A stretch of DNA of 64,000 bases from Bradymonadia bacterium (lineage in GTDB: Bacteria; Myxococcota_A; Bradymonadia; UBA7976; UBA1532), in NCBI GenBank assembly GCA_046290225.1, contig JBKAGE010000037.1, forward strand, positions 96,001-160,000, given 5' to 3'. The position numbers and the translations under genes were made by a program. Shown one piece after another: positions 20,936 through 30,993 of this stretch. Each line of letters starts with the position of its first letter. The stretch's first letter is position 1. A model generated the notes under the pieces. It saw only the letters and a program-made list of their open reading frames with translations, had not been told where the DNA came from and ran no database searches.

Positions 20936-21874
20936 TCAGAAGAGCAGCAGCTCACCCGCTTCTGGGGTCTCACTGTCGTCGAAGAGCGTCTCGCCCATGC
21001 GGGCGCCGATCTCAGTGTGCACTTCTTTGGCGATGGCCCAGTCATCGGGCCGCTCACCAAGAGCCTCAGCCACCTCTCGCTGAAGCTCAACGAAGAGTGT
21101 GTCGATGCGCATCAGGCGCTGAGCCACGGGATCTTGAAACTGCAAATGGGAGATCGCCTTATGAGAGGCAGTCACGATCTCAGCGCCGTGGCTCTCACCG
21201 ATCTCCATCGTCTGCTGTGTCAGGTCTTCGAGCATGTCCACCCCCTGATCCATCTGCTCGACGAGGGCCTGAAAATCTCGAGAGAAGCTCTCAGTCTGCT
21301 CACTGAGCACCTCCCCTTGCTCGATGCACACTGGCAGCGCGCCGAGCAATCCCTCAGCGAGACGGGCGACCTCAGTGTTCGCCTCGGAGACTCTGGCGCT
21401 CATGCGCTGCATCTCAGCAGCGATGACCTCGAAGGCAGCCCCTTGCTCACCCAGACGTTGAGACTCGATCTGGGCATTGAGCGACAAAATTCGAGATGAG
21501 CTCGCCAAGGCTCGGATCGCCTCGCCGATGCGCAAGATCCCCTTCGACTGAGCCTCAGCGTCGATGAGCGCTTTGCTCTGGCGGTCTTGTGCCGATCGCA
21601 CATTCACCATGAAGTCCGTGATCATCTCGTGCTGTTGGCGTGCGACGCGGTGTAGGGCGCTGCGGCCGTCCTCGTCTTGCAAGGCTGAGATGGCTACCCG
21701 CGTCATCTCGATTTGAGAGCTCGCCGTCTCGACGATCTCGTGCACCGCTGTGCCGGTGTTGATGACCTCTGCCTCTGTCGTCTGATTCGCCTCAGAGATC
21801 ACCGACTGAATGGCATCTCGGACGCGCTCGAGCGTGGTCTTGACCACCTCTGCTTTGTGGGCGCTCACGTCCAT
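20936..21874 (-). CDS. Soluble MCP-signalling-domain protein with C-terminal LQFQD (CheZ-like) motif
   Basis: MCP hairpin tip LSLNAQIESQRLGEQGAAFEVIAAEMQRMS, no TM segment, then LQFQDPVAQRL and a terminal GELLLF. Confidence 0.8.
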   Translation of the reverse strand: MDVSAHKAEVVKTTLERVRDAIQSVISEANQTTEAEVINTGTAVHEIVETASSQIEMTRVAISALQDEDGRSALHRVARQQHEMITDFMVNVRSAQDRQSKALIDAEAQSKGILRIGEAIRALASSSRILSLNAQIESQRLGEQGAAFEVIAAEMQRMSARVSEANTEVARLAEGLLGALPVCIEQGEVLSEQTESFSRDFQALVEQMDQGVDMLEDLTQQTMEIGESHGAEIVTASHKAISHLQFQDPVAQRLMRIDTLFVELQREVAEALGERPDDWAIAKEVHTEIGARMGETLFDDSETPEAGELLLF

Positions 21875-21902
21875 CTCCTTTTTCGGAAACCGGTTGGCGT
21901 TC

Positions 21903-22277
21903 TCAGGCGGCGGTCAATTTCCGGGCCGCAGCGACGAGCTGGTCGGCCTTGAAAGGTTTCACGATCCACCCCTTGGCACCGGCGGCCTTGGCCCGCTTGA
22001 TCAGCGCTGGCTGCCCTTCGGTCGTGAGCATGATTACGGGTAACTGAGGCCGTTGCCCTCCGCCCTTGACCCGCTCCAACATCTCCAAGCCATTCATACG
22101 TGGCATGTTGACATCACAGATCACCATAGAGATGTCGGTCTGACGCTCTATAGTCTCTGCCCCCTCCTGACCATCAACAGCTTCCAACACCTGGAAGCCA
22201 ACCTGACGCAACGCAAGGGAGACTTGCTGACGCACAGTGGCAGAGTCGTCGACGATGAGAATACGCTTACCAGACAC
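21903..22277 (-). CDS. cheY: CheY-like single-domain response regulator
   Basis: ILIVDDS, CDVNMPRMNG (phospho-Asp), MLTTE, AGAKGWIVKPF. GGAGGAG RBS. Confidence 0.93.
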   Translation of the reverse strand: MSGKRILIVDDSATVRQQVSLALRQVGFQVLEAVDGQEGAETIERQTDISMVICDVNMPRMNGLEMLERVKGGGQRPQLPVIMLTTEGQPALIKRAKAAGAKGWIVKPFKADQLVAAARKLTAA

Positions 22278-22668
22278 GTTCGCTCCTCCATCAAGTCAAG
22301 CGCATGTTGCGATGACTCATCTTGAATCACCGTCTGTTCAGTGCAGGCCTGATTGTTCACGTACAATGTGGTTCGGACATCTTTACCAAATACTGAAGCC
22401 TGAGAACTCCGGCGATCTCACTTGACCCAGGCATCTTGACTCTGCAGGGCTTCCCCAAAGTTGTCCCCCTCCATACCCACAGTAAAACCCCAACCTTTTC
22501 AATCCAGTACCCAGTGTCCTTCTCATCCAGCCCTTAGGGGTCCGGCATGACCCCCCCTCAATTGTACTTGAGTTCTGACCCCCAACGCGCCGTACCCCCC
22601 CCTGTCTTTGTGAGCACTGGCGAGACGATGTCGATGAAACCAAACCACACGCACAAGGGGAACAAGTC

Positions 22669-23406
22669 GTGAGCCACCAGACTCCACGACCACAGACCTC
22701 ATGGCTGAGGCGGTGCATGCTGCTCTTGACCATGATGATGCTGGTCGTGCCTGCGCAAGCGCTGGCAGAATCAACGCTCTACGTGTTCCTGCCGAGCAAC
22801 GTTCGGCCCAAGAAGCTCGAGAAGCTTCTCTCCGAGCACATGCCTGGGGTCACGGTGGTGGCCTTTGGGCGGGTCAAAGACTTCGAGAAGACTCTGGCCT
22901 CGACGCCACCAGATGCCATTCTCACTGTAAGTCCCATGGTGGACGCCGTGGGGATGAAGGCCAGCCTGCTCGGCACCCGTGGGGGGACTGACTCCGAGCC
23001 GCTCTTCCTCATCGCCGTGGGCCAGGTAGCAGATCAAAGCGCCCTGGAGGGTAAGACCGTGGGCATGGTCGATCTGCTTGGGCGCAAACGCATGAAGAAG
23101 CTGGTGGCCAAATTGCTCAACCTCGGCAAGCCCAAGGTGAAACGGGTGACCAAGCCTGCCGACTTGTTGCCTCTCTTGCAGTTCGAAGCGGCTGATTTGC
23201 TGCTGGTGCCCGAAGGGTATGTCGCTGAGCTCAAGAGTGGCACGGAGCTCGACCTCAAGACCAAAGGCCTGGGCGCAGCCCGCATCGGCCTACCCGCTCT
23301 TGCCCTTCGGGAGGGTGGCAATGGCGGTGGTCTCGTCGACGCGATCAAGAAACTGCCCAAGACCGTGAACTCCAAATTGGGGGTGGAATCATGGAAAGCA
23401 AAATGA
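22669..23406 (+). CDS. Secreted periplasmic-binding-protein-like protein (phosphonate-binding-like class II fold, tentative)
   Basis: Signal peptide ending AQALA-E and a LEGKTVGMVD motif typical of class II SBPs. First gene of the rightward operon. Confidence 0.7.
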   Translation: MSHQTPRPQTSWLRRCMLLLTMMMLVVPAQALAESTLYVFLPSNVRPKKLEKLLSEHMPGVTVVAFGRVKDFEKTLASTPPDAILTVSPMVDAVGMKASLLGTRGGTDSEPLFLIAVGQVADQSALEGKTVGMVDLLGRKRMKKLVAKLLNLGKPKVKRVTKPADLLPLLQFEAADLLLVPEGYVAELKSGTELDLKTKGLGAARIGLPALALREGGNGGGLVDAIKKLPKTVNSKLGVESWKAK

Positions 23407-24416
23407 TGGCCCACCACGTGAAAACGCTGTTGTTGATTTCTGTGTGTGTGCTCCTGGCCAGCTGTGGTGGCCAGAAAGCCAAACAGAACGAGGGCATCAC
23501 CTTTGTCGACCCGCCGCGTCGGGAGGGCACTGAGGCTGTGCTGGTCATGTTGCCCGCGAACTCAGCCTCCGCTGAGGTGCGTCAGGGCCTGCTGGAGTCC
23601 GTAGGCGAGGAATACGACATCGTCACCCGCGTCGTCGGCGGCAAAGTCACTGCTGACGACATCAACACAGCGATGACTGAGGTGTCTCCTGCAGCAGTGG
23701 TCTTGCTGAACAACGCCACCATCAAGGCGTACAAAGCCTGGCAGAAAACTCAGGGTGACGACAAAGAGTTTCCCCCTGCCATGTTGCTGATGGCCTCCTA
23801 CCTCAAAGAATTTGCCGGAGACGTGCAAGCAGCCACGGGGATCGTCTATGAGATTCCCAGCGTCAGCATCTTCTCCAACCTGCGCAAGCTGGTGAAGCAC
23901 GAGGTCAAACGCGTCGGTGTACTGCATCGACCCAACCTGAAGACCTTCATCGAAGGGCAACAGAAGCTCGCAGCCATCGAGAAGTTCGAACTCGTGGCCG
24001 TGGAGATGCCCGCTGATCCGGACGCTCGGGAAGTTCGCCGGGCAGTCCGCCGACTCTCTAAGGAAGTTGACGCATTGTGGGTGCTCAATGACAACGGCCT
24101 GCTCACCTCCAAGATGCTCACGAAGGCTTGGGTGCCGGGCCTGAGGCGCAACACTCTGCCCGTGGTGGTGGGGGTCAAGGCCCTCGTGGCCGAGCAGGCT
24201 GTCCTCGGCACCTTCGCCGTGCTGCCCGATCACATGGAGATGGGCCTGCAGGCCGGGAACATGCTGCTGGAGATCGCCGACGAAGACTGGACCACTGAAG
24301 GGGGCTTTGAGCAACCCATCGCTGTAAAGACGGTCATGCACGTTGGCTTCGCTCGGGATCACCTGGGTCTCATCGAGGATCGCAAAGACCGGATCAACGT
24401 GCTCGTAGGTCAGTGA
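23391..24416 (+). CDS. ABC-type substrate-binding-like lipoprotein (class I PBP)
   Basis: Lipobox LASC. TGIVYEIP...VKRVGVL...VDALWVLND pattern of the ABC_sub_bind-like family. Overlaps the upstream gene. Confidence 0.75.
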   Translation: MESKMMAHHVKTLLLISVCVLLASCGGQKAKQNEGITFVDPPRREGTEAVLVMLPANSASAEVRQGLLESVGEEYDIVTRVVGGKVTADDINTAMTEVSPAAVVLLNNATIKAYKAWQKTQGDDKEFPPAMLLMASYLKEFAGDVQAATGIVYEIPSVSIFSNLRKLVKHEVKRVGVLHRPNLKTFIEGQQKLAAIEKFELVAVEMPADPDAREVRRAVRRLSKEVDALWVLNDNGLLTSKMLTKAWVPGLRRNTLPVVVGVKALVAEQAVLGTFAVLPDHMEMGLQAGNMLLEIADEDWTTEGGFEQPIAVKTVMHVGFARDHLGLIEDRKDRINVLVGQ

Positions 24417-24697
24417 ATCACTGACCACCGCCCCACCTCATCACTCCCCCACCACACAAGATTGATGTCATTGAGCATAGATGACTATTGCTCATACACC
24501 CCGTTCCTCCCCAAACGCTCATCAAAGACTCAGCTTCTATATTTTGTGGGTACCCACCGTCCCACCCATAGAGTGCCCACCAGAATCACCCGAAGGCTAA
24601 CTGAGACCACACACAGGTCCGTCACGTTTTGTCCCAGCACACAGTGCCGGGTGACCGCTCTCTGAGAGAGCCAAAACTCCTCATGGGGAGATACGAC

Positions 24698-26131
24698 ATG
24701 CACGCATTCAAGAAGATCACAGCCGTTTCCCTTGCCCTGAGCATCGCAGGTGTCACCGGCTGCGGCGGAGACGAAGAGCAGGCCAGCGCAGGCACTTCGT
24801 TCAAATACCAGAGCGTCACCGGCAAGTGCCAGGTCCTCGCCGAGGGCGACGTCTACATGGGCATCGCCGTCTCCGTAGGTGGTGACGTCTGGCCCGTAGC
24901 CGAGTTCATCGACATCGCCAACCTCGCCGTCACTGAGATCAACAACCAGGGCGGCCTCGGCGACAAGGGGCAGCTCGGGGCGATCCTCTGCGACACTGAG
25001 TGCCTGCCCGAAACCGGCACCGCCGTCTTCGACGAGCTGCTCGACGCCAAGAACAGCAACGGCATCGACGTTCCCCTCATCGTGGGCCCCTCGTGCAGCT
25101 ACGTCGCTGTGGAGGTCATCGACAAGGCCAAGGCCGCCAACGTCGCGGTCATCGGCTCGAGCACCGAGAGCACCGAGCTGACCAGCTTCGACGATGGTGA
25201 CTACTACTTCCGCTCGATCGCCTCGAGCGCTCAGCTGGGCACCGCCCAGGGGGCGTACCTGGCCTCGGAGCAGCAGCTCGACAAGCTGGCGGTGCTCTAC
25301 CCCGTGGACGCCTGGGGCCCCGGCATGGCCTTCGAGACCTCGAACAAGTTCGCCGAGGTCACCGTGGCGCAGGGCTGCGAGGCCGGCACCAGCGATGTCA
25401 CCGGCGACGGCGAGGATGACGTGCTCAGCATGAACTGCCCCACTGAGATTCAGCTGCTGCCCTACCGCTACCTCGACGAAGACAACACCACCCCGGAGTT
25501 CGACGGCGCCGCCATCGCCGCCGCCCTCGACAACTTCACCACCGAGGGTCAAAACGTCGGCGTGTTCCTCATCGGCTACGAGGCTGACACCTTCATCGCC
25601 AGCCTGCTCAGCGAGATCAACCGCCAGGAGTGGAGCAACGGCGCGCCCTATGTCGAGCTGACCAACACCATGACCACCGAGTTCTGGAACATCGTCGGCG
25701 ACTCTGATCTGCTCGAGGGCATCGGTGGCATCACCGCCAAGGCGCCCGACTCTGCCGCAGCGCAGCACTTCGCAGAGGCGATCCTCGCCGCCACCGGCAG
25801 CGAGGTGCAGAACTACTGGGGCAACCTGTACGACGCCATCTACCTCGGCGCCGCCGCCATGGCCATCGCCCCCGACGCCACCAACGGCCCCGGCGTGCGC
25901 GACAGTCTGCGCAAGACCGGCACCGGCACCAAGGTGTCCGTGGGTGACTGGGCCGGCATCCTCGCCGCCGCTCAGGCCGACGGCCAGGTGGACATCGACG
26001 GCGCAACGGGCCCCCAGGACTTCGACGCCAACGGTGACGTGTCGTCACTGTTCACCCACCAGCGATTCAACAGCTCCGGTCAGTATGAGACCAGCGGCTG
26101 CTGGCTCGGCGACGGCACGCCCTGCGAATAA
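24698..26131 (+). CDS. LivJ/branched-chain amino acid-type substrate-binding lipoprotein
   Basis: GGGGAG RBS, lipobox VTGC, AVTEINNQGG, IVGPSCS, YYFRS, YDAIYL, GATGPQDFDANGD. Confidence 0.85.
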   Translation: MHAFKKITAVSLALSIAGVTGCGGDEEQASAGTSFKYQSVTGKCQVLAEGDVYMGIAVSVGGDVWPVAEFIDIANLAVTEINNQGGLGDKGQLGAILCDTECLPETGTAVFDELLDAKNSNGIDVPLIVGPSCSYVAVEVIDKAKAANVAVIGSSTESTELTSFDDGDYYFRSIASSAQLGTAQGAYLASEQQLDKLAVLYPVDAWGPGMAFETSNKFAEVTVAQGCEAGTSDVTGDGEDDVLSMNCPTEIQLLPYRYLDEDNTTPEFDGAAIAAALDNFTTEGQNVGVFLIGYEADTFIASLLSEINRQEWSNGAPYVELTNTMTTEFWNIVGDSDLLEGIGGITAKAPDSAAAQHFAEAILAATGSEVQNYWGNLYDAIYLGAAAMAIAPDATNGPGVRDSLRKTGTGTKVSVGDWAGILAAAQADGQVDIDGATGPQDFDANGDVSSLFTHQRFNSSGQYETSGCWLGDGTPCE

Positions 26132-26204
26132 GGTTAACTCGGTCCTTCCTCAAGCCGATGCCCCGGGGGGGGCTGGCGTTGTCAAGATACAGGAATCGAT
26201 ATCC

Positions 26205-28526
26205 ATGATGTTGTTCACACGCCCCACCCTCGCCAAGGTGTTTGCCAAGGCACCTGCCAAGGTACTTGTCACAGCATTGGCGCTGAGCTGCGCCTCTGCA
26301 CCTGGGCAAGCCTCTGCAGAGGAAGACGAGCTCGACCTCGCCGCACTGCTGAACCTCAACGTGGTGGTCGCCGCCACAGGTAAAGCACAGTCGGTACGCG
26401 ACGCGCCGGCGATCATCTCCAGTATCAATGGTGATGAGATTCGCGCCGCCGGGTACCGCACCGTGGGCGAGGCTCTTCGCAACATCCCCGGGCTCTCGGT
26501 CATCGAAGATCACGTCAACACCAACGTCGGTGTGCGCGGGTTCTTCTCGAACAGCGACTCGGCAAACGACATCATCAAGGTGATGATCAACAGCCAGCCG
26601 GTGGCCTTCAGGCCCACGTCGAGCAACTACCTGGGCTTCGATCTGATCCCCATCGAGGCGGTGCAACGCATCGAGGTGATCCGTGGCCCCGCCTCAGCCC
26701 TCTATGGCGCCAACGCCTACCTCGGCGTGGTGAACGTGGTGACCAAGACCGGGGCCGACATCAGCAAGTCTGGCATCGGTGGTGAGGCGAAGGCCGAAGC
26801 CTTCATCGCCCAAAACGACGAAGAGACGACGTTCAACCAGAGCGGCAGCTTCGTCGTGGGCGGCACTCTGGGCAAAGCCAAGCTGATGCTCTCAGGTACG
26901 CTGCTCAGCGCAGATCGCTCTGGATTGGCGCTCCCTGATCCGCCCGCTTCCCCAGGCTGGGGCAACACCCGAGCCCAAGAGGCGTTCCGAGCAGCGGCGC
27001 CAAGCGAGAACGACACCGCGGTGGAGGCCTCGGTGTACGGTCTCGGCAGCCTTGAGCTCGACGGTGTGGGCACGCTCACCCTGGACACTCACTTCCAATA
27101 CCGGGACAAAGGCGGCGAGTTCCTCGGTGACACGGCCCTCACCCACGGGACCCGCATTGCTGAATCCAACCTCTTCGCCCGGCTGCAGTTCCAGTCGACC
27201 CGCCCCAAGAAGGGCGTGGGCTTCTACTGGGACGCCACGCTGAGCTACGCCCGGAGCGGCCCTCTCGAGGCCGATGTCATCATCGATGAGAGCAGCCCCG
27301 ACATCGATTTGGAGCGCAACTTCGGCGGTCAAGCCATCGGCGGCGTGCTCGAGCTCAACTATGGCTTCTCGGAAGACACGATCCTCACGGTGGGCTTCGA
27401 CATCGACCACGACATGGAAGATTTGCTCACCATCGAAGAGGTCGACGGCAACGGCGTGGTGAACGAGAAAGATGGCTACGGCGATCGAGACTTCACCAAC
27501 ATTGCCGGATACAGCCAGCTGATCCTGGGCCTCGCCGAGGGGCTCTCGCTCACCGCAGGCGCTCGCTTCGATCACAACAGCGCCATTGTCTGTAACAAGG
27601 ACGACGACTGGGACTGCTTCGGCAGCCAGACCACCGACGTGGCGGCGTCGACGAGCGGCAATGGTGAAGGCGAAGAGACTGACGGTGGCATGCTCCAGAT
27701 GTCGAGCAGGCTGGCGGTGGTCTACAACAACGAGGACTACGGCTTCTACACCAAGGTGGCCTATGGGTCGTCGTACAAGGCGCCGACGCCCTATCAGCTT
27801 TACCACGAGCGCGTGACCCGCAAGGGCACCATCGGTGAGCCCAGCCTCACGCCCCAGACCGCGGACACCTTCGAGGGTGTCGCGGGCTACGACATCACTG
27901 ATGACCTGACGATCACCCTTGGCGGGTTCCTGCTCGAGGCCAGCAACCTCGTGGTGTCGTTCCAGGGGGCCAACGTGGGCATCGAGAGTCGCAACGCAGA
28001 CGCGAGCTCCATGGGCATCGAGAGCGGGCTCACGTACAGCCCCGATCGCGATCTGGTGGTGAAGCTCAACGCCAGCTACCTGCTCAACGCCGAGATCGAG
28101 GCGAAGAAGCGCGCCGCGGAGACCGACACGAGCTTCGCCCTCAAACCCTTCGGTAAGGGTGCCGTGGATGCAGGCCGATACCCGGATCTCATGGCCAACC
28201 TGCACGTGGCTTACACGATGCCTACGGCGCACCTGCGCATCGGCGGCAACCTGAACTATGTCGGCGGCCGAAACGCCTCTTTGCTCAACAACATGGTGTT
28301 CAACGCCCGCGATCTCAACGACACATACACCCTTGATCCTTACATGCTCGCCCGGCTGAACCTCAGCACCACGGGGCTCTACCTCTTCACCGATGAGGCC
28401 GAGACCCAAATCAGCTTGATGTTCATGGGCACAGTGCTCGGAGACGAGGTCGGAGCGGGCTTCGGCGGCGTCGACGTACCTGGTTTGGGACCGCAAGTCT
28501 TCTTGAAGATCAACCAAGCCTTCTAA
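26205..28526 (+). CDS. TonB-dependent outer-membrane receptor
   Basis: Signal peptide, plug motifs DAPAIISSI...EALRNIPG and IPIEAVQRIEVIRGPASALYGANAYLGVVNVVTK, terminal Phe (KINQAF). Start trimmed from 25725. Confidence 0.92.
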   Translation: MMLFTRPTLAKVFAKAPAKVLVTALALSCASAPGQASAEEDELDLAALLNLNVVVAATGKAQSVRDAPAIISSINGDEIRAAGYRTVGEALRNIPGLSVIEDHVNTNVGVRGFFSNSDSANDIIKVMINSQPVAFRPTSSNYLGFDLIPIEAVQRIEVIRGPASALYGANAYLGVVNVVTKTGADISKSGIGGEAKAEAFIAQNDEETTFNQSGSFVVGGTLGKAKLMLSGTLLSADRSGLALPDPPASPGWGNTRAQEAFRAAAPSENDTAVEASVYGLGSLELDGVGTLTLDTHFQYRDKGGEFLGDTALTHGTRIAESNLFARLQFQSTRPKKGVGFYWDATLSYARSGPLEADVIIDESSPDIDLERNFGGQAIGGVLELNYGFSEDTILTVGFDIDHDMEDLLTIEEVDGNGVVNEKDGYGDRDFTNIAGYSQLILGLAEGLSLTAGARFDHNSAIVCNKDDDWDCFGSQTTDVAASTSGNGEGEETDGGMLQMSSRLAVVYNNEDYGFYTKVAYGSSYKAPTPYQLYHERVTRKGTIGEPSLTPQTADTFEGVAGYDITDDLTITLGGFLLEASNLVVSFQGANVGIESRNADASSMGIESGLTYSPDRDLVVKLNASYLLNAEIEAKKRAAETDTSFALKPFGKGAVDAGRYPDLMANLHVAYTMPTAHLRIGGNLNYVGGRNASLLNNMVFNARDLNDTYTLDPYMLARLNLSTTGLYLFTDEAETQISLMFMGTVLGDEVGAGFGGVDVPGLGPQVFLKINQAF

Positions 28527-28602
28527 GGCAGACCCGCCTCCTCAACTCATCTCTTCAATCACTCGAATCTATAGATAGCTCCACTTGCTCTGAGGCGTTC
28601 TC

Positions 28603-30993
28603 ATGACTGCTGTCAAAACTAGTCTGAAGTCCAAGCTGATCCGTAGCACCACTGTCACCCTGACTGTGGTGGGCTTACTGACTCTGGTCTCGGTGGCATG
28701 GCTGCAGTATCGCGGCGCCGAGTCTCACCAGAAAGATGTCGAGTCCTACATCAAGGAAGGCATCGACAAGAAGGGGCAGGTGCTCGCCAGCAACCACGCG
28801 CTGGCGCTGCAGGGTCTCTTCGAGGACAACGCCTTCTCCGCGGTTCAAGAGCTCATCTCGAAAACAGTGGGCGATGATGCCGATCTCGCCTATGGCCTGG
28901 TGCTCGACGAGAACATGAAGCCGTGGATCTTCGCCGAGAACCAGTCAGGCAAGCTGATCAAGGCCGACAAGGCCAAGGCCGGTAAAGCCCTCGGCACGCT
29001 CGGTATCTCCGAAGAGATGCTCGAGGCAGAAAAGGGCGTCACCGCCCGCAAGGTCATGTTCAACGGAGAAGAGATCTACGAGTTCTCGGCCCACATCATC
29101 GTCGATGAGGAAGATCTCGGCTCGCTCCGATATGGCTTGTCCACCCGACGCATGCAGCAGGCTGTGGCTTCGGCAGCAGAGGCGTCGCAGTCGGCGCTGA
29201 TTCAGGCCCTGGCGATCTTGTCGGGCATCTGCTTGCTGGGGATCATCGGTGGGGTGCTCAACACCCGACGCACGGCACAGAACATCACTGGCCCGCTCAA
29301 CGCCCTCACCGAAGCAGCCCACGCCATCGCCGAGGGTGATCGCAGCCGCTCGGTCCAGATCTCCAGCGGCGACGAGCTCGAGGTCCTCGGCGGCACGTTC
29401 AACCAGATGGTGGCCGATCTCAACGCCTCGTATGCCGAGCTCGAAGAGATGAATGCTGGCCTCGAGCAGATGGTGGAAGAGCGCACTCGGGACCTCAAGC
29501 AGAAGACCGACGATGTGGTGGCCATGCTGCAGAACATTCAGCAGGGCCTCTTCACGGTGCTGCCGGGCATGGAGATTCACCCGGAGTATTCAGCCCACCT
29601 CGAGAGCATCCTTGGTACAGCTCAGATCGCAGGCCGCTCGCTGCACGATGTGTTGTTCATCGCCACCGATTTGGGCTCCGACGCCATCAACAGCGCCGAG
29701 GTGGCCCTGGGCTGCACCCTCGGTGAAGACGCCATGATGTTCGAGTGGAACAACCACTTGCTGCCCACGGTCTTCCACTATGAGACGTCCGATGGTCGCG
29801 ACTTGATCCTCGAGGCAGACTGGAACCCCATTGTGGAAGAGGACGATACCCTCAGCCGCCTGATGGTGTCTCTCCGCGACGTGACCGAAATTCGTCGCTT
29901 GCAGGCGGAAGGCGCAGCCCAAGAGCGCCAGTTGGCCATCGTGGGTCAGCTGCTGGCCATGAAGCCCGGTGAGTTCGAGCGCTTCTACGACAACAGCTCT
30001 GCCTTCATCGCCCGTAACCGCGAGCTGGTGGCCGTGAACGAGCGCCCTGGTGACGAGGTGATCACCGAGCTGTTCCGCAACATGCACACGGTGAAGGGCA
30101 ACGCCCGCTTCATGGGTCTGAAGTTCCTCAACGATCTCGTCCACGAGGCTGAGGAAGACTACGATCGCTTCCGTCAGGATGCCGAGGCGGAGTGGTCCTC
30201 CGAAGCGCTCATCACCCGCCTCGACGGTGTGCAGAAGGCCCTCGACGAGTACCGCGATGTACAAAATGAGAAGCTCGGCGGTCGCAGCGCATCTTCTGAT
30301 GGTGGCGCGATCCAGAGCGCTCTCGAGGGGCTGCTTGAGCAGGTGCGTTCGGGGGCCGAGTTCTCGAACGAGGCGCTGATTTCGCGTCTCGAGGCTGTGG
30401 GCCGCGCCGGTGAGGTGGAGACCCTCGGCTCGATTCTGGAGAACACGGTGGAGGGCCTCGCGGAGATCGCCGAGGCCTTGAACAAGCCCACCCCGGAGGT
30501 GGTGATCGAGCCTGCGGACATCGAGGTGCCCGCAGAGCTGGCCCCCACCTTGAGAGATGTCTTCAACCACATGCTCCGCAACGCTGTGGATCATGGCATC
30601 GAGAAGCCCGATGATCGCACCCACGCAGGCAAGGATCCTCAAGGGCGCATCACCTTGCAGGTGGACGCGAGCGAAGGCGAGCTGGTGGTGGAGATCTTCG
30701 ACGACGGTCGGGGGCTCAACCTGATGGCCCTCGGCGCTGCTCACGAGGCGCTGCACACCGCCGCCGGCAAAGAAGCCCCTGCACACCCCGCGGACGAAGA
30801 GCTCGCCCGGGTGATCTTCGCCTCTGGGGTGTCGACGGCAAAGACGGTGACCGATATTTCTGGTCGTGGCGTAGGCATGGAGGCGGTGAAGGCCTTCCTG
30901 CAATCGAAGGGTGGAGATGTGGAAGTGCGCTTCCGCGGCCCTCGTCAGGGTGCTTACCGCCCCTTCGCCCTGGTGATGCGCCACCCGATCTGA
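28603..30993 (+). CDS. Membrane-bound CheA-like histidine kinase: TM-periplasmic sensor-TM-HAMP-PAS-like-Hpt-HATPase, no CheW domain
   Basis: Two TM helices, HAMP (ITGPLNAL...DELEVLGGTFNQM), Hpt LFRNMHTVKGNA, CheA-type HMLRNAVDHGIE, DDGRG and STAKTVTDISGRGVGM. The protein ends right after the ATPase domain. Confidence 0.9.
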   Translation: MTAVKTSLKSKLIRSTTVTLTVVGLLTLVSVAWLQYRGAESHQKDVESYIKEGIDKKGQVLASNHALALQGLFEDNAFSAVQELISKTVGDDADLAYGLVLDENMKPWIFAENQSGKLIKADKAKAGKALGTLGISEEMLEAEKGVTARKVMFNGEEIYEFSAHIIVDEEDLGSLRYGLSTRRMQQAVASAAEASQSALIQALAILSGICLLGIIGGVLNTRRTAQNITGPLNALTEAAHAIAEGDRSRSVQISSGDELEVLGGTFNQMVADLNASYAELEEMNAGLEQMVEERTRDLKQKTDDVVAMLQNIQQGLFTVLPGMEIHPEYSAHLESILGTAQIAGRSLHDVLFIATDLGSDAINSAEVALGCTLGEDAMMFEWNNHLLPTVFHYETSDGRDLILEADWNPIVEEDDTLSRLMVSLRDVTEIRRLQAEGAAQERQLAIVGQLLAMKPGEFERFYDNSSAFIARNRELVAVNERPGDEVITELFRNMHTVKGNARFMGLKFLNDLVHEAEEDYDRFRQDAEAEWSSEALITRLDGVQKALDEYRDVQNEKLGGRSASSDGGAIQSALEGLLEQVRSGAEFSNEALISRLEAVGRAGEVETLGSILENTVEGLAEIAEALNKPTPEVVIEPADIEVPAELAPTLRDVFNHMLRNAVDHGIEKPDDRTHAGKDPQGRITLQVDASEGELVVEIFDDGRGLNLMALGAAHEALHTAAGKEAPAHPADEELARVIFASGVSTAKTVTDISGRGVGMEAVKAFLQSKGGDVEVRFRGPRQGAYRPFALVMRHPI

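Follow-up and report, generated by a model that had tools for sequence, protein, structure and literature searches.

Does an outer-membrane receptor encoded with exported binding proteins, a membrane kinase, and chemotaxis-like partners serve nutrient uptake or signaling? The question is posed by a divergent locus at positions 20936–30993 of the window, by which we mean the whole 64,000-nucleotide stretch analyzed here, from a Bradymonadia bacterium (assembly GCA_046290225.1, contig JBKAGE010000037.1, positions 96,001 to 160,000). Rightward, the locus encodes three binding proteins (SBP1–SBP3), a TonB-dependent receptor (TBDR), and a histidine kinase with a Cache sensor domain; leftward, it encodes a CheY-like receiver and a soluble protein resembling methyl-accepting chemotaxis proteins (MCPs). 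An earlier note on this DNA had described these seven genes, and all seven open reading frames proved intact between these positions:

20936–21874, minus strand: soluble MCP-like protein, 312 amino acids; MCPsignal domain, diverged signaling hairpin, C-terminal LQFQDxxxQ, GExxxF tail
21903–22277, minus strand: CheY-like single-domain receiver, 124 amino acids; Asp10, Asp11, Asp55, Thr85, Lys107; KGWIVKPF clade
22278–22668, no strand: divergent intergenic region between CheY and SBP1
22669–23406 (likely start 22717), plus strand: SBP1, exported; uncurated family with a PhnD/type II binding-protein fold
23403/23406–24416, plus strand: SBP2, type I binding protein with two domains (ABC_sub_bind/TrpX group); putative lipoprotein with lipobox LASC
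24698–26131, plus strand: SBP3, predicted lipoprotein (lipobox VTGC); LivK/Peripla_BP_6 type
about 26205–28526, plus strand: TBDR; plug and barrel, without an STN domain
28603–30993, plus strand: class III-type histidine kinase, 796 amino acids; membrane segment, Cache, membrane segment, HAMP, PAS-like segment, Hpt, CheA-type ATPase

The answer differs for the two halves of the locus. SBP1, SBP2, the receptor, and the Cache domain recur together in several phyla as a four-gene cassette placed before different outputs, and this input half very probably signals. The output half agrees with the layout of class III histidine kinase systems. Both halves have precedent; their combination and SBP1 appear undescribed.

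A Four-Gene Cassette Recurs across Phyla

Related loci were found through an SBP1 alignment with one genome per species, and the best 80 of 98 were analyzed. All locus counts are therefore anchored on SBP1 (one peptide pattern), and 18 of the 80 loci come from Sorangium. Genes were called with a simple caller of our own and labeled from probes and profiles; the caller missed SBP1 in 2 of the 80 loci that tblastn had found. Within this set, SBP1 was accompanied by SBP2 in 78/80 loci, by a receptor of the family in 55/80, and by the Cache sensor in 63/80, with all four present in 47/80. Among loci with full 10-kb flanks, 35 of 46 held all four core genes (18/28 excluding Sorangium). Core loci occur in Myxococcota (17 of them Sorangium), Gammaproteobacteria, Fibrobacterota, Caldithrix (Calditrichota), and KSB1. 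SBP1 lies directly ahead of SBP2 in 72 of 76 loci, and gene order is otherwise variable. SBP3-like proteins are encoded in 31/80 loci and are the immediate neighbor of the receptor in 20 of the 29 loci that hold both; other binding-protein families replace SBP3 in some loci.

Conservation differs between the cassette's parts. Mean pairwise identity is 40% for SBP1, 40% for SBP2, and 35% for the Cache domain, as against 26% for the receptor (28 loci plus the window) and 27% for SBP3 (9 loci plus the window). This contrast suggests that the receptor and SBP3 set ligand specificity, whereas SBP1, SBP2, and the Cache domain would form a shared relay.

The cassette is patchy, since its Cache domain was found in 3/400 genomes of the phylum and 0/17 of the family. 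The guanine–cytosine (GC) content of the window reaches its minimum (0.577) at 22001–24000 and ranges from 0.60 to 0.68 elsewhere; alongside the patchy distribution, this minimum may point to acquisition by horizontal transfer. Carriers in culture include Sorangium cellulosum So ce56, Pleionea sediminis, Marinibactrum halimedae, and an Aliikangiella sp.

Several loci depart from the one-input, one-sensor layout. Inputs are duplicated in Fibrobacter loci (two receptor and SBP sets), in Parabeggiatoa (three tandem receptors), and in a fen myxobacterium (two) (L080, L084, L052, L027). Genome G291 (L086–L089; contigs C46 and C70) encodes four sensors with the cassette-type Cache domain, one class III and three HisKA hybrids: Two flank a single receptor–SBP3–SBP1–SBP2 block, and the 20-kb stretches that hold the other two have no such block, so that one input block may feed several sensors. 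L025 and L038 lack a Cache sensor but hold SBP1, SBP2, an SBP3-like protein, and the receptor; their neighbors there are REC-DUF3369 kinases and a protein with an HD domain. A more distant subfamily is represented at L110:3-2580, where a receptor and a weakly SBP2-like protein lie 7 kb from an MCP-like gene.

Receptor and Binding Proteins

The fold of SBP1 is that of PhnD-like type II binding proteins (Atlas template-modeling score 0.76 to a Phosphonate-bd cluster). The protein forms a family of its own, clearly set apart: At 50% identity, 561 clusters reach E values of 1e-10 or lower and 624 reach 1e-3 or lower. It matches no model in Pfam or NCBIfam, and its profile found no match among PDB sequences. 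SBP2 gives a weak ABC_sub_bind match (24.1 bits, just below the cut-off of 25.9), and its structural model (predicted local-distance difference test, pLDDT, 92.5) is a two-domain type I protein nearest to 3LFT (tryptophan-bound), 3LKV, and CD0873. Because the model has two domains, we rejected the reading of SBP2 as a one-domain protein akin to YfiR or RmSBP; its C-terminal half weakly matches RmSBP. The Asp-Asn motif of the tryptophan-binding relatives, which binds amino groups, is kept in SBP2, and on its retention our guess is an amino-bearing ligand, such as an amino acid or a peptide end. SBP3 matches Peripla_BP_6/ANF_receptor models in Pfam and NCBIfam.

The receptor carries a conserved N-terminal LxLxxLL motif ahead of a TonB-box-like strand. 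Leu45 is invariant in 38/38 receptors and position 48 is leucine in 35/38; an LxLxxLL-like start is also present in related receptor subfamilies.

Kinase, CheY, and MCP-Like Protein

Class III kinases, reportedly delineated by Wuichet and Zhulin in 2010 and by Adebali et al. in 2017 (J Bacteriol 199:e00218-17; cited in PMC6501615), are said to combine a sensor with Hpt and a CheA-type ATPase and to have no dimerization or CheW domain. The window kinase shows each of these features. Two membrane segments surround a single Cache domain (residues 37–198), followed by HAMP; the Hpt domain and CheA-type ATPase described by the earlier note are confirmed by Pfam Hpt and HATPase_c matches, by CheA as the best NCBIfam matches, and by the Hpt histidine, His495, within MHTVKG. 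His495, Asn660, Asp700, and the GxGxG box are invariant (14/14). Pfam found no HisKA, H-kinase_dim, or CheW match in the kinase, and P3 and P5 probes built from the window genome's own CheA did not match it; as a control, the P3 probe matched a second CheA at 2.7e-7. We infer a PAS-like segment where Pfam gives no match. Full-length homologues number about 13; in most other matches listed, the similarity is confined to the cytoplasmic 65%, which follows a different sensor. The kinase was not found in 40 relatives at E 1e-30, with at most 25 candidates scored per genome.

The Cache domain matches sCache_3_2 in 22 of 42 family sensor domains. Its model (pLDDT 90.7) resembles the WalK sensor (Z 13.0 over 136 residues) and shares the Cache fold with LuxQ (Z 9.1). 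A search of PDB sequences with the Cache profile returned chance matches only. YfiN/CHASE8 structures were not among the rows of the fold search, which excludes nothing.

As to partners, class III systems are said to include a single-domain regulator, an unorthodox soluble chemoreceptor, and the phosphatase CheX, with pilT in the genome. The window supplies the first two, and its genome encodes pilT; CheX is absent from the window locus, present in a CheA operon elsewhere in the genome, and encoded in 14/30 related class III loci as against 0/27 HisKA loci. CheY of the window type (>95 bits) occurs in 14/30 class III loci vs. 0/27 HisKA loci, the latter group including 17 Sorangium loci; a second CheY type serves 8 more class III loci, and CheW occurs in 0/30. 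Kinase class and CheY type are linked, in support of the earlier note's pairing of this kinase with this CheY. To our knowledge, the class III description does not include an input made up of a TonB receptor with binding proteins, and we know of no tested input or output for these kinases.

The MCP-like protein matches MCPsignal (E 3.6e-10) and has no membrane segment. Its hairpin tip departs from the chemoreceptor consensus, and a QFQDxxxQ motif is invariant in 6/6 family members. DxxxQ is the catalytic motif of CheZ phosphatases; Pfam CheZ gave no match at E 0.1. In the designation MCP/CheZ-like, the likeness to CheZ comes down to a five-residue motif. We regard the protein as a candidate CheY phosphatase or scaffold, proposing the phosphatase role on the motif alone because CheX is missing from the window locus. 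Relatives occur in 8/400 genomes, beside the same CheY clade in 5/8, near a CheX-like gene in 4/8, and beside a CheA-type kinase without a CheW match in 2/8.

Two further arrangements of this module were observed. The window genome has a second trio at L001:9659-16272 (G000:C36, about 409.6–416.3 kb) that comprises an MCP-like protein with QFQD, a CheY, and a kinase, here a soluble PAS-Hpt-ATPase protein without a P3 or CheW domain. A small bacterial globin and a Cache chemoreceptor follow, and the trio is possibly an oxygen- or NO-linked class III system. In gammaproteobacterial loci L010, L020, L053, L057, and L071, a different conserved run precedes CheY: a 250-residue protein with a partial MCPsignal end and an unknown protein of about 187 residues. 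Four of these five loci have a CheX-domain fusion, and those of their kinases that were tested carry an extra GAF domain.

Outputs behind the Cache Domain Have Been Exchanged

The Cache domain precedes a class III kinase in 30 loci, a HisKA kinase (classical or hybrid) in 27, an MCP in 2, and other or truncated outputs in 6; a distant version of the domain is fused to PP2C. A Cache tree of 49 rows, which left out 15 Sorangium and 2 other near-copies as well as short fragments, requires 8 changes for the class III label (bootstrap 6–8; 5 forced by well-supported branches), 4 for the HisKA label, and 2 for the MCP label. From these changes we conclude that outputs were exchanged several times.

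Precedents for the Two Halves

The idea that the locus has no precedent is not supported, given the class III character of the output half and a published counterpart for the layout of the input half. In PahSPK of Cycloclasticus sp. P1, the 687-residue receptor PahS binds the 318-residue periplasmic protein PahP, and PahP binds the 771-residue kinase PahK, with ligand-dependent shifts; both interactions were measured by surface plasmon resonance, two-hybrid assay, and Förster resonance energy transfer (Wang et al. 2023, iScience; PMC10570129). One primer from the same source led to 8 metagenome stretches, 4 of which are the pah locus. Three more pah primers match gene starts, and L098 has intact frames of 318 and 771 amino acids. 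PahP belongs to ABC_sub_bind (E 2.5e-9); PahK combines HisKA, REC, and Hpt in one hybrid protein and matches sCache_4 weakly.

PahSPK resembles the window locus in encoding a TBDR, an ABC_sub_bind protein, and a single-Cache HAMP kinase together, and in having no FecR or ECF sigma factor. It differs in its output: PahK, a HisKA hybrid resembling BarA, is paired with a regulator that binds DNA, whereas the window locus pairs a class III kinase with CheY. The larger PahS piece scored 131 bits on the receptor profile vs. at least 400 for full members, and the fetched pah loci showed neither an SBP1 nor an SBP3 partner. On this comparison, the window locus likely works like PahSPK without being a member of it.

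The fetched pah loci yielded some observations of their own. The pahS-like and pahP-like genes are each frameshifted at the same place in L093, L097, and L099, which may be an assembly error or natural loss; the pahP frame is intact in L098. The N-terminal part of PahK matches BarA best, and the genes ahead of the pah genes in L097:2539-10852 are presumably rlmD and cysM, judged from the starts of their sequences. On these neighbors and the BarA match, PahK/PahR is probably a BarA/GacS–GacA pair with a receptor and a binding protein placed upstream. In the supplementary primer table, as read here, the primers labeled PahS and PahK match each other's genes (PMC10570129).

Other envelope systems share part of this design. 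In YfiBNR of Pseudomonas aeruginosa, YfiR is a periplasmic repressor and YfiN a sensor of PAS-like type whose outputs can be swapped (Malone et al. 2012; PMC3375315). Like the cassette, it joins an outer-membrane component, a periplasmic partner, and a PAS/Cache-HAMP sensor whose output is exchanged (GGDEF, kinase, or MCP); it lacks the two conserved two-domain binding proteins and the TonB receptor. Pfam found no YfiR/DUF4154 match in SBP1 or SBP2 and no CHASE8 in 42 sensor domains, and no YfiB of the OmpA/Pal type was found among the locus proteins or the recurrent neighbor clusters scanned. NF053592 matches only the end formed by the second membrane segment and HAMP, far below the cut-off.

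In LuxP–LuxQ and TorT–TorS, the membrane kinase is under the control of a periplasmic binding protein of type I. LuxP and TorT share the fold class of SBP2, as LuxQ does that of the Cache sensor; the cassette differs from both systems, which have no dedicated outer-membrane receptor, a single binding protein, and classical HisKA kinases. FecI/FecR/FecA also uses a TBDR as signal input, but the window receptor has no STN domain, the locus has no FecR or ECF sigma gene, and the output is phosphorylation. Class II CheA chemosensory systems have P3, a CheW-like P5, and an operon CheW; the first two are missing from the window kinase, and CheW from all 30 class III loci. ABC importers differ in having a cognate permease and ATPase, neither of which was found for the window binding proteins.

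No description of the four-gene family was found in the literature searched, which left out most subscription papers; the text and supplements of the class III source papers may list loci that belong to it.

Signaling versus Uptake

The folds of all three binding proteins are those of transport proteins, which favors a reading in which the receptor imports a nutrient, the SBPs deliver it to ABC permeases elsewhere, and the kinase senses independently. PF02653 (BPD_transp_2) permeases serve TrpX- and LivK-type binding proteins, and they are encoded elsewhere in 4/5 other cassette-bearing genomes tested. Against uptake, PF02653 and PhnE are absent from the window genome (positive controls responded in 12/14 and 13/14; BPD_transp_1 permeases as a whole were not listed), and PF02653 is absent from Pleionea sediminis as well. 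An ABC-ATPase probe gave no match within the window's range of contig C37, in line with the gene inventory of the earlier note. ABC ATPases occur in 15/80 loci, 13 of them one Sorangium exporter with its own membrane domain and 2 unclassified. The uptake reading is already largely refuted for SBP2 and SBP3 in the window genome, and overall we hold it very improbable. From the absence of BPD_transp_2 and PhnE, together with the cross-phylum co-occurrence of receptor, SBP1, SBP2, and Cache sensor, the binding proteins most likely serve signaling rather than ABC import, as had been proposed. That the cassette signals in some form—by relay, by partner switch, or in the manner of LuxPQ—is very probable.

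Weighing the Mechanism

We see an even chance that the cassette spans the envelope and relays an outside ligand to a module of class III kinase, CheY, and MCP-like protein. The receptor would capture the ligand outside the cell, with SBP3 as an accessory outer-membrane partner, and hand it to SBP2, working with SBP1; SBP2 with SBP1 would then dock on the Cache domain, both steps by analogy with PahS/PahP/PahK. HAMP would control the CheA-type core, and the kinase would phosphorylate CheY without CheW or receptor arrays. Motility control would be the likely output, since this CheY carries no domain for binding DNA and FliG, FliM, and PilT are all encoded in the genome; the MCP-like protein might reset CheY.

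A number of observations, the PF02653 permeases of other genomes among them, weigh against this relay. SBP1 anchoring and kinship, including the 18 Sorangium loci, mean that the locus counts are neither unbiased nor independent. Among full-flank loci, 6/46 have no receptor and 7/46 no Cache sensor. The seven genes are not supported as a conserved unit, standing together in 0/80 loci: SBP3 and the MCP-like gene are optional members, and the one locus with six of the genes, L081, has an MCP-like protein without the QFQD motif. Receptor distances track those of SBP1, SBP2, and Cache weakly (Spearman 0.35–0.43, vs. 0.55–0.72 among those three), as descriptive correlations not corrected for shared ancestry. 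The analogy with PahSPK is itself distant. PahP and SBP2 share a Pfam family yet align at 16% identity (hhalign E 0.028), which makes PahP a cousin of SBP2, whereas orthology within PahSPK was set at >45% identity over 80% of the length (PMC10570129); the PahK sensor gives no alignment with the cassette's Cache family (E 0.063). CheW and CheA are encoded elsewhere in the window genome, so that the description CheW-less holds for the locus and the kinase but fails for the cell. Finally, McpA-type receptors join arrays in Shewanella, where McpA clusters with CheA3 and CheW3 (PMC9855816), making an array role possible for the MCP-like protein.

How the envelope is crossed could also be explained without a ligand hand-over from receptor to kinase. 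In a partner switch as in YfiBNR, SBP1 and SBP2 would be protein adaptors. Either the periplasmic LxLxxLL helix of the receptor or the Cache domain would hold them until ligand or TonB action at the receptor shifts them, so that no ligand need reach the kinase. The much stronger conservation of SBP1, SBP2, and Cache than of receptor and SBP3, the conserved receptor leucines, the YfiR–YfiN pairing with its swappable outputs, and the genome in which two of four Cache sensors lie away from other cassette genes all favor such a switch. We nevertheless consider it unlikely: SBP2 is a full two-domain binding protein with its Asp-Asn motif kept, YfiR/DUF4154 and CHASE8 models gave no match, and related receptor subfamilies share the LxLxxLL-like start. 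Slightly less probable still is that no physical relay exists, the receptor being a plain importer that brings in a scarce ligand. Together with the Cache kinase, SBP2/SBP1 would then be a sensor like LuxPQ or TorTS that measures this ligand after its arrival in the periplasm. The loci without a receptor, the weak tracking of receptor distances, and a Cache fold common to such sensors agree with this; the retention of one receptor subfamily beside the cassette in 55/80 loci and several phyla, and the direct receptor–binding protein interaction measured in the cousin PahSPK (PMC10570129), speak against it.

The leftward pair might also be separate, a possibility compatible with any of these readings. 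The MCP-like protein would then work in CheW/CheA arrays and CheY would serve another kinase, their link to the cassette being positional. CheW, CheA, and CheB operons are present in the window genome; SBP1 was not found in genomes with the MCP-like protein and CheY (0/5, in a search without a positive control); and in G291 the MCP-like, CheY, and CheX-like genes form a block of their own, apart from the cassette block that holds all five genes of the rightward arm. The Shewanella arrays point the same way. Against separation stand the confinement of the CheY clade to class III rather than HisKA loci, the paralogous trio of the same make-up in the window genome, and the departure of the MCP-like hairpin tip from the chemoreceptor consensus, and we judge it distinctly improbable.

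Genomic Background

SBP1 and SBP2 are contiguous, the stop of the first overlapping the start of the second (ATGA); a promoter and terminator scan of the intergenic region 22278–22668 stayed at chance level. Probe searches of the window found no further receiver and no CheW, CheB, CheX, or GGDEF, in agreement with the earlier account, which had no cheW, cheB, or DNA-binding response regulator in the window (CheR was not probed separately). The window genome (8.58 Mb, 99.4% complete) encodes CheW, CheA, CheB, and CheX outside the window, along with FliG, FliM, and PilT; TonB and ExbB/MotA-family genes are also present. A flagellar gene cluster lies at about 92.5–118.3 kb of G000:C75; FliG and FliM are confirmed there, and its other gene names were read from the sequences.

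Implications

The relay may be one instance of a general adapter, in which TonB receptors capped by an exchangeable binding lipoprotein signal through an SBP1–SBP2 coupler. The cap would be SusCD-like in role with a LivK fold; the coupler would dock both on the LxLxxLL helix of the receptor and on a Cache domain dedicated to this task, and within a cell a single coupler could pass signals to multiple kinases, chemoreceptors, and phosphatases, with an MCP-derived phosphatase of the CheZ type as reset. Taken jointly, these sub-claims are unlikely to hold together. If they did, and with a class III output, flagella or pili would be steered by molecules outside the outer membrane without a chemoreceptor array.

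In the literature found, signaling from a TBDR through a binding protein to a kinase rests on one system, PahSPK, and the cassette family joins a PahSPK-like input to a class III output. A relay in which both input and output can be swapped would be a useful biosensor part. Because named cultured strains carry the cassette, experiments could ask whether sensing is a widespread role of TonB receptors and whether steering is possible for cells that use no receptor arrays.

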